Notes: generated by a model not told the origin, from the sequence alone. A DNA stretch of 32,171 nucleotides from a virus (IMGVR_UViG_3300029539_000017:1-32171), one strand, 5' to 3'. Counted from the stretch's first letter, positions 19,322 to 22,385 are shown. Numbers and translations: made by a program.

Positions 19322-19828
19322 ATAGAAAAGAACAATGGAGGATTTAATCAAATAACAAGAAGTATGTATTTTCTAGACAAGATAAATGCAATGGGTGGAG
19401 TAGCCGTTGCCGTATTAACATACGTATTAGGTGAGCATTGGTATTTATTTGCATTCTTCTTATTTATGAATGTAGTGGATTATATTACAGGATGTATGAA
19501 GTCGGCGATTAATCACAAAATCAATAGCAATAAAGGATGGATTGGAGTTCTAAAAAAGCTAGGCTATTGGATTATGATTGTAGTTGCGTTCACGTTCAGT
19601 GCATTCTTGGTTGAGATTGGAGAAATGCTAGGAATTGATTTCCATGTAACCACATTATTAGGTTGGTTTGTATTGGCTTCTTTATGTATTAATGAAGTGC
19701 GTAGCATTATTGAGAATTTGGTACAATGCGGATATAGCGTCCCTAGTGTATTAACTAAAGGTTTGGAAGTAGCAGATAAACTCGTTAACGAAGAACAAGA
19801 AAATGACGAATCAAGTACCTTGGAATAA
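19322..19828 (+). CDS. Holin (phage_holin_4_1-like; motif LCINEVRSIIENL, hydrophobic segments). Start ambiguous: ATA 19322, ATA 19352, GTG 19313 or ATG 19364.
   Basis: TM helices and the SIxEN motif; both in-frame ATA codons sit 6-9 nt after GGAG(G) sites. Confidence 0.7.
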   Translation: MEKNNGGFNQITRSMYFLDKINAMGGVAVAVLTYVLGEHWYLFAFFLFMNVVDYITGCMKSAINHKINSNKGWIGVLKKLGYWIMIVVAFTFSAFLVEIGEMLGIDFHVTTLLGWFVLASLCINEVRSIIENLVQCGYSVPSVLTKGLEVADKLVNEEQENDESSTLE

Positions 19829-20069
19829 GATTATTCTTGAAGAATTTATTAATCTAGCTTTATTAACTAAAGACGAAGAAATGATTCTAAGAACTAGAAT
19901 ATACGGATGGACAGTCAGAGAACAAGCCGATAGATTGAATATGAGTGTTTCTAGCGTTAATAGAATCATCAAAAAGATTAAGAACAAGTATGATGAAGTA
20001 GAGAAGTATAGCGCAGTCCTACCACCAAGAAAAAGCAGTGAAAAAGAAATGTATCTAGATAAAAATTAA
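19803..20069 (+). CDS. Small sigma-70 region-4-like HTH protein (putative transcriptional regulator).
   Basis: LTKDEEMILRTRIYGWTVREQADRLNMSVSSVNRIIKKI matches the sigma region-4 HTH pattern. Confidence 0.5.
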   Translation: MTNQVPWNKIILEEFINLALLTKDEEMILRTRIYGWTVREQADRLNMSVSSVNRIIKKIKNKYDEVEKYSAVLPPRKSSEKEMYLDKN

Positions 20070-20092
20070 GAGGTTGAAAAGCCTCTTTTTTT
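20067..20092 (+). terminator. Rho-independent terminator (AAGAGG-ttgaaaag-CCTCTT + T8).
   Basis: Perfect 6-bp stem followed by eight T. Confidence 0.75.
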
Positions 20093-20162
20093 TGACATTT
20101 ATCTGATATTAATGTGAAAACAAACTGAGACTGCCTATGAATATAATTAGGAGTGTAAAGAG

Positions 20163-20597
20163 GTGAGCGAAATGTATAATCCAATTAATGACAGAATTAA
20201 CAATTTAATGAATCAGAAGCAGATGATTGAATCACAGTTACAAAACATTCAACAATTAGCGAATATTCCACCTATTAACATCAATAACCAAATTACACCT
20301 AATATGGCATTGAATGATTTTAATGGAAAATGGGTCAATAATGAACAAGAAGCAAGGAATATGATGGTGAATGGTTTGCCTAGTATTATGCTAGATAGAA
20401 ATGATTCAGTATTCTACATGAAATCATTAGACGGCAGTTTCAAAAAATACAGATTCCAAGAAGAAACAGAACCGAAGAAAGATGGCATAGAACAACGCTT
20501 AGACAAGCTAGAAGCTATGATATTAGGTCTAAAAGGCGGAAGTAATATAAATACAAGGGCAGAGAAAGAAACGCCTAGAAAGGAGCTTAAAGCGTGA
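20163..20597 (+). CDS. Gln/Asn-rich hypothetical protein (144 aa).
   Basis: AGGAGTG + GTG (or ATG 20172); low-complexity Q/N stretches. Confidence 0.45.
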   Translation: MSEMYNPINDRINNLMNQKQMIESQLQNIQQLANIPPININNQITPNMALNDFNGKWVNNEQEARNMMVNGLPSIMLDRNDSVFYMKSLDGSFKKYRFQEETEPKKDGIEQRLDKLEAMILGLKGGSNINTRAEKETPRKELKA

Positions 20598-20803
20598 ATC
20601 CTTTAATGAATATGATGAACCCTCAACAAATGTTGTTGGGTATGTTACAACAAAGAAATCCACAAGCATTTAATCAAGTTCAACAATTAATGCAGAGTGG
20701 GCAGAATCCCCAAGTATTGCTTAATAATATGATGGGGCAGTTAACGCCACAACAGAAACAACAATTTGAAAATGTGGCTAGTCAATATGGGCTAAAACGC
20801 TAA
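20594..20803 (+). CDS. Small Q/N/M-rich protein (69 aa), STI1-like NPxxM repeats, prion-like composition.
   Basis: AAGGAG + GTG; MNPLMNMMNPQQMLLGMLQQRNPQ…. Confidence 0.45.
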   Translation: MNPLMNMMNPQQMLLGMLQQRNPQAFNQVQQLMQSGQNPQVLLNNMMGQLTPQQKQQFENVASQYGLKR

Positions 20804-20827
20804 TTGCGTTGAAAGGAGGAAATATAA

Positions 20828-21439
20828 ATGGAAAGCATGAATGGTATTCAACCAATGTACGATTTAGCAGACAGAAACAACAATGAATTTGGTGGAGGAT
20901 ATTGGATTTGGATTATCCTTTTATTCTTGTTATTTGGTGGAAATTGGGGTAACAATGGCAACCTACAGAATGACGAATTAATGAATCAAGAATTTATTAA
21001 GCGTGATTTATTTAATACAAATCAAAATGTATCTAGCCAAGGCTATCAAAATTCAAGAGACATTTTAGAAAGCCGATACACGACACAATTAGGTTTGCAG
21101 AATCTAGGACAACAGAATCAAGAATGTTGTTGTGCAACGCAAAGAGCGATTGATGGTGTAAATACACAGAGTTTTAAAAATACGTGTGATATTACCACTG
21201 CAATCCACGCAGAAGGTGAAGCAACAAGAGCATTAATTAATGCTAACACAATGCAAGAATTGCGTGATAAATTAGCAGATAGAGACAGAGATTTACTAAC
21301 TGCAAACTTCCAATTAAGTCAACAGGCTCAATCTGCAAATATCATTAATACATTGCAACCAACGCCAAAACCTGCATATCTTACTTGCTCACCTTATTAT
21401 GCATACAATATGACAGGTTGTGGATGTAACCAAATCTAG
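20828..21439 (+). CDS. Membrane-anchored Cys-rich protein; N-terminus resembles YjcZ-type sporulation peptides (GGGYWIWIILLFLLFGGNWG), plus CCC and GCGC motifs.
   Basis: AAAGGAGGA + ATG; one TM helix; Q/N-rich middle section. Confidence 0.5.
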   Translation: MESMNGIQPMYDLADRNNNEFGGGYWIWIILLFLLFGGNWGNNGNLQNDELMNQEFIKRDLFNTNQNVSSQGYQNSRDILESRYTTQLGLQNLGQQNQECCCATQRAIDGVNTQSFKNTCDITTAIHAEGEATRALINANTMQELRDKLADRDRDLLTANFQLSQQAQSANIINTLQPTPKPAYLTCSPYYAYNMTGCGCNQI

Positions 21440-21474
21440 CTCGAAAGAGATTAGGCAATAGCCTTTGGATTATA

Positions 21475-21504
21475 GGGTAGTCGAAAGGCTACCCATTTAT
21501 TTTA
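21475..21504 (+). terminator. Hairpin (GGGTAG-8 nt-CTACCC) plus a T-rich tract.
   Basis: Inverted repeat followed by atttatttta. Confidence 0.4.
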
Positions 21505-21520
21505 TAGGAGGAAAAGAAAA

Positions 21521-21940
21521 ATGATTAATAGTATAGCAACGGCAGTACAGACAGTAGCAAACGGACAAAATGTATTATTTCCAACGGATAGAGTAAGAAC
21601 GAAATCATGCCAATGTGCTTGTAAAGGTTGGCTTGCTCATGATGTGGGAAGTGGACTATTTACGTTGACGAAACAAGGAATTTATGAAGTAGAATATACG
21701 GCAGACATCACAAGCGCAACGGTAGGAGTCGCTTCTTTAGAATTAGAACAGAATGGAGAAGCAGTAGGAGGAACAGAATCTCTATATAATGTAGCTACTG
21801 CAAGTGCATACGGAAACGTAAGTGGAGTTACATTGATTCAAGTACCTTGTGGAGCTTCTTATACAATCACGCTAGGAAATAACAGTGGCTTAGATTTATC
21901 TGTTCAAAATGCAAATATCATCATTAAGAAATTAGCGTAG
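21521..21940 (+). CDS. BclA C-terminal domain-like (C1q/TNF-like) protein without a collagen-like repeat.
   Basis: TAGGAGGA + ATG; C-terminal half including the ending …IIIKKLA parallels the Bacillus exosporium BclA CTD (…IIIEKVA). Confidence 0.55.
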   Translation: MINSIATAVQTVANGQNVLFPTDRVRTKSCQCACKGWLAHDVGSGLFTLTKQGIYEVEYTADITSATVGVASLELEQNGEAVGGTESLYNVATASAYGNVSGVTLIQVPCGASYTITLGNNSGLDLSVQNANIIIKKLA

Positions 21941-21947
21941 GTGTATC

Positions 21948-22385
21948 ATGCAAGAGGTTAGAAAAAGGAATCTAGACCTCTTAACGGAAGCAATGAGAGG
22001 ACTAGAAAAAGGATACAATGATTTAGACTTTAGAGTCATGAGCCAAGCTTTAGACAATATCAAAGATATTGATACAATACTAGCTATGAGTGATGGAAGA
22101 ACGGCTATAAACGCATTAAAAACAAATGATACAGATATTGAAGGAACGGAAATTGATGATAATATCGCATTGATGAATAGCCATTTTAGGAAATACATAG
22201 AAGCTAAAAAAGAATATCGAAAAGATAACAATGAAATTGATAAACAAAATTCAATTCGTGAATTAGAAGCATTTCTTAGTGCTATGTATGGAATTTTAGA
22301 AGAGATGAAAACGTCTAGCGACTTTCAAGAAGAAAGAGAAATGGTAAGAGATAAATTAAGAGAAATGTTCTCTGTATATCAGTGA
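21948..22385 (+). CDS. Hypothetical acidic protein (145 aa).
   Basis: AGGTG + ATG. Confidence 0.45.
   Translation: MQEVRKRNLDLLTEAMRGLEKGYNDLDFRVMSQALDNIKDIDTILAMSDGRTAINALKTNDTDIEGTEIDDNIALMNSHFRKYIEAKKEYRKDNNEIDKQNSIRELEAFLSAMYGILEEMKTSSDFQEEREMVRDKLREMFSVYQ

Follow-up and report, generated by a model that had tools for sequence, protein, structure and literature searches.

The stretch of viral DNA analysed here, IMGVR_UViG_3300029539_000017:1-32171 (32,171 nucleotides, hereafter the window), covers most of a siphovirus genome of ~37 kb in which every gene lies on the + strand. An earlier note on this DNA, made from the sequence, had pointed to an accessory cassette between the holin and endolysin genes. 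The insert is real: between a holin of family PF05105 and an endolysin with a CHAP domain lie, in this order, a gene for a protein resembling region 4 of sigma-70 factors (here r4), a terminator, five open reading frames (ORFs; here o3 to o7) and a long hairpin ending in a run of eight T residues (T8). To judge by gene order and homologues, this module is a widespread accessory operon, present in thousands of phages from the gut whose hosts span several bacterial phyla. The features of the locus are listed below in window coordinates.

19313-19828, + strand: holin, upstream boundary of the cassette (PF05105 Phage_holin_4_1, E 2.3e-32; phrog_199 holin)
19803-20069, + strand: r4, an 88-amino-acid (aa) sigma-70 region-4-like helix-turn-helix (HTH) protein whose start overlaps the holin 3' end
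20068-20095, + strand: intrinsic terminator from a scan, directly after the r4 stop codon, with an 8-bp stem, a GAAA loop and T8 (stem-loop 20068-20087)
20092-20147, + strand: candidate activator-dependent promoter region, from direct reading and lineage alignment, putative in function
20172-20597, + strand: o3, 141 aa; a Q/N-rich helix at the N-terminus is followed by a small beta domain (aa ~54-97 in the numbering of the ORF), a helix towards the C-terminus and a final tail that is charged and rich in Lys
20594-20803, + strand: o4, a 69-aa Q/N/M-rich basic protein whose start overlaps the o3 stop by 4 nt
20828-21439, + strand: o5, core protein of 203 aa; after a short peptide at the N-terminus comes a Gly-flanked hydrophobic segment (aa ~21-38), and the protein also has predicted long helices and Cys motifs
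21475-21494, + strand: internal terminator- or attenuator-like hairpin between o5 and o6, from the scan
21521-21940, + strand: o6, a 139-aa stand-alone protein resembling the BclA C-terminal domain (PF18573, 39.2 bits against a gathering cut-off of 38)
21948-22385, + strand: o7, a 145-aa acidic protein (isoelectric point, pI, 4.7) with an ALDNIKDI motif, in the variable last position of the module
22393-22428, + strand: 16-bp hairpin with T8 closing the cassette, from the scan and direct reading
22439-23200, + strand: CHAP endolysin, downstream boundary (PF05257, 26.2 bits against a cut-off of 26; several PHROG endolysin families)

Natural deletions of the module

Relatives of the window phage were gathered from IMG/VR by means of the Tal-type minor tail protein (31 relatives, 88-99% identical), and the 28 that reach beyond the holin are informative. 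The arrangement holin-r4-module(-lysin) is found in 25 of these, and the other three are without r4 and the module and keep holin and lysin. In one of the three (L145) positions 19815-22328 are gone save for a 43-bp remnant of o3, in the second (L123) 19885-22298 are gone, and in the third (L139) 19822 is joined to 21835 and 22095-22376 are gone too. The junction in L139 is a 15-nt direct repeat (14/15 identical) located at 19808-19822 in r4 and 21835-21849 in o6, and an r4-o6 fusion from a deletion of this type (P0522, HTH_23 plus BclA_C, 163 aa) is recorded on two other contigs. Three different deletion junctions that spare holin and lysin indicate that the r4-o7 unit is accessory and dispensable. 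The boundaries proposed earlier for the cassette are borne out as well, since the three variants remove roughly 19815-22330 and leave the holin beside the lysin. In a separate myovirus lineage, comparison of L120:8001-8723 with L115:10001-11424 reveals, on one contig, a ~700-nt deletion that has fused the beginning of o3 with the final part of o5, which is by its junction a second, independent predicted loss of module function.

Distribution and gene order

Hidden Markov models (HMMs) built for each family were run on all ORFs of ~120 loci from IMG/VR, GTDB genomes, INPHARED and metagenome contigs, of which 39 non-redundant loci were counted. The search for homologous cassettes in other phages, suggested in the earlier note, thus yields a module of the same order in 39 diverse loci: [r4]-o3-o4-o5, then either o6 or a Cys-rich beta protein of ~125 aa, then o7, a DUF7841 protein or a ~235-aa protein here called LQGFKR. 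A homologue of o5 is present in 38 loci, o3 in 33, o4 in 30 (invariably placed o3-o4-o5), o6 in 22, the Cys-rich alternative in 14 and r4 in 18; o6 and the Cys-rich protein are mutually exclusive. Independent gene calls also give conserved order and content. In profile comparisons with hhalign, none of o7, DUF7841 and LQGFKR was related to another, nor was o6 to the Cys-rich protein, nor o4 to o5 or o3, and the profile of the Cys-rich family matched nothing meaningful among solved structures. The families are large, with 6180 clusters at 90% identity (783 at 50%) for o5, 845 clusters for o3 and 555 for o6.

Searches of annotated phages with tblastn placed o5 and o6 side by side in many uncultured gut phages, and o5 alone was also matched in Clostridium perfringens phages. 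Three matched records were read and contain, in the same order, a Q/N-rich protein of ~150 aa, a Q/M-rich protein of ~75 aa, a protein of ~200-250 aa that combines a hydrophobic segment with CCC and, at the C-terminus, CxC, then a beta protein of ~140 aa and finally an acidic protein. Genes upstream of the module encode endolysins, XhlA-like proteins, or tail or baseplate proteins. The closest named relative is a prophage on contigs of Holdemanella biformis (identity 77% for o5, 86% for o6 and 80% for the lysin), where the module follows the tail genes and precedes an r1t-type holin and a CHAP lysin at the prophage end. The splitting of holin and lysin emphasized in the earlier note is thus true of the window lineage only, the Holdemanella relative having the module upstream of both.

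A host survey in which one genome per species was scanned for o5 found it on contigs assigned to Solobacterium, Waltera, Phascolarctobacterium (545 kb), Megasphaera, Anaerofustis, Ruminococcus, Christensenellaceae, Oscillospiraceae, Gastranaerophilales, Spirochaetaceae, Bacteroidales and Prevotella (557 kb); assignments of short contigs from metagenome-assembled genomes may err, and those of long contigs are reliable. Holdemanella, Solobacterium, Phascolarctobacterium, Megasphaera, Prevotella and Bacteroidales are not known to sporulate, and some such taxa are diderm; some members of the Clostridia families surveyed form spores. Besides siphoviruses, carriers include an abundant 58-65-kb myovirus in which the gene order is baseplate, M15 peptidase, a 135-aa membrane protein, r4, o3, o4, o5, o6 and, further on, replication genes. 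The crAss-like phages cr116_1 and cr52_1 have full-length o5 homologues beside lysis genes, labelled 'spike protein/glycoprotein' by the depositors. In cr52_1 (L009, 1325-5214) several ORFs, that of the o5 homologue included, contain in-frame stops under table 11; stop-codon reassignment is known in some crAss-like phages, and these stops are consistent with it. No description of the module turned up in literature searches on BclA/C1q with prophage or holin, on DUF7841 and on C. perfringens phages.

Module proteins

The core protein o5 has seven Cys residues, including an invariant CCC, another Cys 18 residues on, and a C-terminal CGC (CxC in homologues). A conserved Pro-rich motif, QPTPKPAYLTCSPY, has the family form LSQQAQ...(R/Q)PxPxPAYxxCSPY. 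The hydrophobic segment is aromatic and aliphatic, with a mean hydropathy of ~2.05 over 15 aa across 81 homologues. Members listed are at most ~300 aa long (full-length 200-300 aa) and have no Pfam or fused domain; o5 and o6 are both 93-100% conserved among close relatives. The Cys clusters noted earlier are therefore present, and the proposed resemblance of the o5 N-terminus to YjcZ sporulation peptides is not upheld: no YjcZ match appears in Pfam at E up to 1 or in NCBIfam at E up to 0.1, and the likeness is confined to the Gly-flanked hydrophobic stretch. A profile search of solved structures with o5 gave nothing meaningful. An N-terminal 'hook' motif like that of F-ENA was sought in o5, occurs as a pattern in only 11 of 36 homologues and is not used as evidence.

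The BclA-like character of o6, already suggested in the earlier note, is confirmed by the PF18573 match above. The o6 family profile matches PDB 9H38 over its full length at E 1.7e-6 and the Bacillus anthracis BclA structures 2Z5W and 1WCK at E 2e-3 to 2e-2; 9H38 is the C-terminal domain of F-BclA from B. thuringiensis (PMC12357932). As a BclA_C-type protein by sequence profile, o6 is implied to have a fold like that of TNF and C1q. Homologues are 133-145 aa long and many have a precomputed PF18573 match. No collagen domain was precomputed in any of the 120 best o6 matches, and the exosporium leader TIGR03720 was not matched. In the exosporium, assembly of BclA-type proteins and the TNF-like ExsF trimer, which likewise have no signal peptide, takes place in the cytoplasm of the mother cell; ExsF holds the proline-rich leader peptide of BclA-type proteins in clefts of the trimer (PMC12357932).

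For o3, the Q/N-rich composition described earlier holds (21% Q+N), and the start needs to be moved: it is most likely ATG 20172 rather than GTG 20163, as indicated by the ribosome-binding site AAAGAGGTG ahead of it, by homologues that open with MYN, and by independent gene calls of 141 aa. A UniProt entry 96% identical to o3 is also 141 aa. Structure prediction gives helix, small beta domain and helix at a predicted local distance difference test score (pLDDT) of 64; the model had no known match, and the o3 profile found coiled-coil noise only among solved structures. The protein o4 is indeed rich in Q, N and M (38% Q+N, 13% M; pI 10.3). Its supposed STI1-like repeats are a likeness of composition only, with no such Pfam family at E up to 1, and o4 had no Pfam, NCBIfam or PADLOC matches at all. 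A fusion of o4 with o5 in crAss-like phages, suspected from a shared KG[IV]DPN likeness, was dropped when HMM tests gave no support. The acidic protein o7, correctly described in the earlier note, has homologues in 10 of the 39 loci, the others having DUF7841 or the LQGFKR family instead, and its profile found nothing meaningful among solved structures. The relatives of o4 and o7 are confined to the module. Proteins in the last position, whether of the o7 or the unrelated DUF7841 family, often hold long low-complexity inserts rich in Arg, Gly, Tyr and Asp, such as GRGNYGRGNSYANRG...RRGGRGGYSR; examples are encoded at L001:7137-7880, L003:6426-6866, L109:9253-9984 and L009:2598-3197.

Searches of Pfam, PHROGs, NCBIfam and PADLOC returned nothing informative for o3, o4, o5, o7 or the Cys-rich and LQGFKR alternatives. 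No PADLOC defence model was matched by o3-o7 or the alternative components, r4 having weak HTH matches only, and direct reading of the N-termini revealed no signal peptide or lipobox in any of the five products. By profile, the components with known relatives are o6 (BclA_C) and r4 (sigma region 4) only, DUF7841 being a named but uncharacterised family.

Regulator and transcription signals

A sigma-region-4-like gene followed by a terminator stands at the head of the cassette as first described, with the qualification that the best profile matches of r4 all fall under curated cut-offs: HTH_23 24.4 bits, Sigma70_r4_2 21.9 (cut-off 25.7), Sigma70_r4 16.9 and TIGR02937 26.6 (cut-off 42.9). The alignment with TIGR02937 is confined to positions ~110-160 of 165, that is, region 4 of extracytoplasmic function (ECF) sigma factors, and r4 also aligns, below cut-off, with the C-terminus of PRK06930, the PBSX-type 'positive control sigma-like factor'. 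At 88 aa and without region 2, r4 cannot be a complete sigma factor. Its homologues carry precomputed Sigma70_r4, Sigma70_r4_2 or GerE matches and stand directly 5' of o3 in 18 of the 39 diverse loci. The overlap of r4 with the holin 3' end suggests co-transcription or translational coupling; elsewhere r4 sits after small membrane, coiled-coil or lysis proteins. Loss of r4 together with the module in the deletion variants implies that the rest of the phage does not need it, which argues that r4 serves the module, and it is presumed to be the module's dedicated regulator. Small coiled-coil proteins with one transmembrane segment are encoded just 5' of r4 in unrelated phages (L092:5924-6382, L095:6029-6436, L115:9170-9577, L004:8420-8936), and some of these match the XhlA 'hemolysin' PHROG.

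Terminator-like sites are abundant here, with six in 4.7 kb against 1.4 expected. The GAGG/CCTC stem core of the terminator at 20068-20095 is unchanged in 16 sequence variants of the lineage, and a hairpin of terminator type lies in the spacer between r4 and o3, directly after the r4 stop, in 12 of 17 diverse loci, compared with 0.34 in shuffles; for the spacer after o5 the figures are 19 of 34 diverse loci and 0.3. In the closing hairpin at 22393-22428, the loop holds an extended -10 element, TGCTATAAT, and the 3' arm is the ribosome-binding site of the lysin, AAAGGAGG. Read-through transcripts may therefore hide this site, whereas transcripts begun within the hairpin would expose it. Eighteen nucleotides of the hairpin, CTTTTATGTGCTATAATT, are repeated exactly at 23265-23282, after the lysin's own terminator.

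The region 20092-20147 holds two 11-nt tandem units, TTGACATTTAT and CTGATATTAAT, followed by the invariant ATGAATATAAT, which is -10-like (20142-47). The lineage consensus of the units is TTGACATTwAT; the second unit of the window is CTGATATTAAT, and several relatives have TTGACA in both. The Holdemanella lineage has 11-nt phased repeats of other sequence ahead of a TATAAT. The promoter read into this region earlier is not a canonical one, as the TTGACA (20092-97) and TATAAT (20142-47) are 44 nt apart and make no -35/-10 pair. The repeats and ATGAATATAAT would fit an activator-dependent promoter read by the region-4-like protein.

Genomic context

The structural block ends shortly before the holin with three tail genes.

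15266-17425, + strand: tape-measure protein, tail end of the structural block
17521-18294, + strand: Dit, 257 aa
18296-19309, + strand: Tal-type minor tail protein, 337 aa

The tail tip is minimal (Dit and Tal), with no receptor-binding or fibre gene ahead of the holin. A 679-aa head protein (5311-7350) matches a 'tail collar fiber protein' PHROG over aa 180-221. Early genes, including Sak, NinB and a replication initiator, run from 23479 onward. Two exact copies of TAAATGTACACAA, at 23368-23380 and 23398-23410, lie 30 nt apart in the AT-rich stretch from the lysin terminators to the first early gene, and look like operators.

The endolysin is 80% identical to the Holdemanella prophage lysin, which begins MNYNDF. 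Its frame has no ATG, GTG or TTG before the catalytic YGAQCWD motif and opens upstream of the listed ATG; from alignment with this homologue the start is probably ATA 22439, 10 nt past GGAGG. Three relatives retain the ATA, and the T-run between ribosome-binding site and start ranges from T5 to T8. A nucleotide search of 50,697 phage records matched the lysin alone, at ~70% to Streptococcus prophage lysins, and an Rfam scan of 19000-23700 found no RNA families. The G+C content is 34.3% in the cassette and 33.7% in the window, so that its base composition is not foreign. A relative 98% identical to the window phage (L152:12373-20615) sits on a 92-kb contig where bacterial DeoR, metallo-beta-lactamase-fold and PTS genes start ~2 kb past the lysin. 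Since this relative adjoins bacterial DeoR and PTS genes, the lineage is probably temperate; the window itself shows no integrase.

Interpretation and alternatives

The module occupies the 3' end of the late region, next to the lysis genes. The description favoured here is tentative, and as a whole is judged somewhat more apt to fail than to hold: the module would be a late operon under its own regulator, encoding a complex that the hydrophobic segment of o5 anchors in the membrane and that lysis exposes. In this scheme r4 would be made from the tail of the late or lysis transcript, given its overlap with the holin 3' end, and would activate a promoter 3' of its own terminator, leading to very late production of o3-o7. 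The products have no signal peptide, which implies assembly inside the infected cell; this would be centred on o5, at the cytoplasmic side of the membrane. The core protein would be held in the cytoplasmic membrane by its Gly-flanked segment and form a Cys-rich helical, probably coiled-coil, stalk, which a TNF/C1q-like trimer of o6 (or the Cys-rich alternative) would cap or bind. Contact between o6 and o5 may use the proline-rich C-terminal motif of o5, comparable to ExsF with the proline-rich exosporium leader, and the Q/N/M-rich o3 and o4 may act as assembly partners or chaperones. The complex would be exposed only after the cell has been opened by holin and endolysin. What the phage gains could be a surface or adhesion property of released material, protection, or control over the final stage of infection. 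Of the earlier description as a moron, the accessory nature is retained; expression for lysogenic conversion fits poorly, as the presence of the module in virulent-looking phages and the overlap of r4 with the late holin gene make late lytic expression more likely.

Several observations weigh against this description. Its timing and its dependence on r4 are read only from gene order, the holin overlap and the terminator. A consensus scan of 20091-20147 found no canonical sigma-70 promoter, and across loci -10-like hexamers 5' of o3 are no more frequent than in shuffles. The regulator is missing or undetected in about half of the loci and hence not obligatory everywhere, and the crAss-like phages show a recognisable o5 alone, with DUF7841 in addition in cr52_1. 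The hydrophobic core of o5 is just 11-17 residues long with a weak positive-inside signal, and the AlphaFold2 prediction of o5, mostly long helices, is of low confidence (pLDDT 48), as is expected of an oligomeric coiled coil modelled as a monomer. Finally, the C-terminal motif of o5 is alike whether o6 or the Cys-rich gene follows, which does not favour a specific docking of o6 on o5.

A role in virion decoration is unlikely. Here o5 would be a non-essential trimeric coiled-coil fibre on head or tail with o6 or the Cys-rich beta protein as its TNF-like knob, modulating adsorption or adhesion, and would resemble the fibritin whiskers of T4, the head fibres of phi29 or side tail fibres. Trimeric TNF/C1q-like domains such as that predicted for the BclA_C-like o6 are typical of fibre tips, o5 is predicted to be mostly long helices, and the module is often preceded by tail or baseplate genes; ahead of its holin the window phage has just Dit and the 337-aa Tal, and no receptor-binding gene. 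Fibres of this kind are dispensable, in line with the deletion variants, and the depositors' spike label on the crAss-like o5 homologues points the same way. However, the most conserved feature of o5 is the Gly-flanked hydrophobic segment, which is odd in a domain for attachment and stays the same across sipho-, myo- and podo-type phages despite their different docking partners. The module also has a regulator of its own and terminators that insulate it, some phages place it among early or unknown genes or by an integrase, and o5 and o6 are, at the conservation given above, not hypervariable.

Control of lysis, in which the module would tune timing or completeness as an antiholin-like or spanin-like membrane device or as a regulator of endolysin access, is likewise given only a small chance. 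It would account for the position between holin and endolysin in the window and next to lysis genes in most loci, for the i-spanin-like outline of o5 (an N-terminal membrane segment and long helices), for dispensability, which is usual for lysis regulators, and for the sequestration of the lysin ribosome-binding site by the last hairpin of the cassette in the window. The earlier note had itself allowed that the products might prove to be ordinary lysis accessory proteins, such as holin antagonists, but o3-o7 show no similarity to holin, antiholin, spanin or any other PHROG lysis family. There is no lipoprotein partner, the module occurs in phages of both monoderm and diderm hosts, and a set of 5-6 proteins including a TNF-like trimer and Q/N-rich proteins has no known precedent among lysis regulators. 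Lysis genes are, moreover, not adjacent in Dulem virus 39 and lie ~3.4 kb upstream in CPD1.

A bolder version of the favoured scheme, quite unlikely at present, would make the module a self-assembling surface or appendage system of the spore-coat or exosporium kind, built in the cytoplasm of the dying cell and released at lysis as a protective or adhesive matrix. Its parts would be a membrane-anchored, Cys-rich coiled-coil stalk, a TNF-like or Cys-rich beta cap, Q/N/M-rich assembly factors and a private sigma-region-4 activator that would turn the system on after the lysis genes. The material would coat, cross-link or tether membrane debris and progeny virions, its cysteines might oxidise on leaving the anaerobic cell, and by analogy it would be a functional counterpart of occlusion bodies or the extrasporal matrix, common to gut phages across phyla.

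Superinfection exclusion, anti-phage defence or takeover of the host at the membrane is improbable. A membrane-anchored protein in an accessory, mobile and dispensable cassette at a typical moron site near the prophage end would suit such a role, but there are no PADLOC matches and no enzymatic domains, the very late expression proposed past the holin would come at the wrong time for exclusion or takeover, and the module is present in virulent-looking crAss-like phages and in a myovirus with its own replication genes.

The role in the spore coat or exosporium of B. cereus-group hosts raised in the earlier note, with the proteins entering or altering the surface of spores from lysogens or infected cells, is very improbable and largely refuted as a general function by the host range: although the closest solved relatives of o6 are the F-BclA and BclA C-terminal domains, C. 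perfringens, a spore-former, is among the hosts, and the Cys-rich small beta proteins, missing signal peptides and GerE/sigma-r4-type regulator recall mother-cell assembly (PMC12357932), nothing links the window phage to B. cereus, the nearest named relatives are on Holdemanella and Solobacterium contigs, the module is in prophages on the long Phascolarctobacterium and Prevotella contigs and also on contigs assigned to Megasphaera, o5 occurs in crAss-like phages of Bacteroidales, tblastn found neither o5 nor o6 in any Bacillus phage among the 50,697 records, and collagen-like stalk, exosporium leader and YjcZ match are all absent.

The module gives part of the dark matter of gut phages the form of a defined unit with a fixed grammar and thousands of homologues, in sipho-, myo- and crAss-like phages of Bacillota, Negativicutes and Bacteroidota. 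Its conservation across phyla despite being dispensable suggests a benefit independent of the type of host envelope, which is unusual for genes adjacent to lysis functions. A BclA/TNF-like fold known from spore surfaces is predicted here in phages of non-sporulating hosts, and the label 'spore-surface moron', left uncorrected, would spread by annotation transfer. The natural deletion variants delimit the unit, and cultivable carriers are at hand in Holdemanella biformis prophages and CPD1-type C. perfringens phages.

Comparison with known systems

The exosporium system of BclA/F-BclA and ExsF (PF18573; PDB 1WCK, 9H38, 9H3D; PMC12357932) shares with the module the BclA_C-type domain of o6 and products without signal peptides, which in the phage would come together in the cytoplasm and become accessible upon lysis; the proline-rich peptide of o5 is of the type of ligand that ExsF trimers bind. 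In contrast to that system, the module has no collagen-like stalk, no TIGR03720 leader and no matches to ExsY/CotY or Ena (DUF3992/DUF4183), and it is phage-borne, linked to lysis genes and found in largely non-sporulating hosts.

The late sigma-like activators (Xpf of PBSX, ECF-type sigma factors) and the region-4-only or GerE-type regulators are the nearest parallel for r4, which aligns with region 4, the -35-binding HTH, of ECF factors and Xpf, heads its presumed target genes and is followed, past its terminator, by TTGACA-like 11-nt tandem units. As a putative DNA-binding protein it differs from them in its size of only 88 aa, the missing region 2 and scores below every cut-off. Like spanins and XhlA, o5 has a membrane segment at the N-terminus, then long helices, and lies beside holin and endolysin; it is, however, unrelated in sequence, has no outer-membrane lipoprotein partner, is just as much at home in phages with monoderm hosts and comes with 4-5 further conserved proteins.

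Morons adjacent to lysis genes are well known, among them stx downstream of Q in lambdoid phages and toxin or immune-evasion genes by the lysin in staphylococcal and streptococcal prophages. Like these, the module lies by lysis genes and near the prophage end, is dispensable, polymorphic for presence and absence, bounded by terminators and mobile between unrelated phages; unlike them, it consists of six genes and has no toxin or enzyme domain. As a lysis-adjacent accessory cassette, it is therefore of a known kind, from which it departs in its fixed grammar, its private (presumably dedicated) regulator, its native base composition and its probable late lytic expression.

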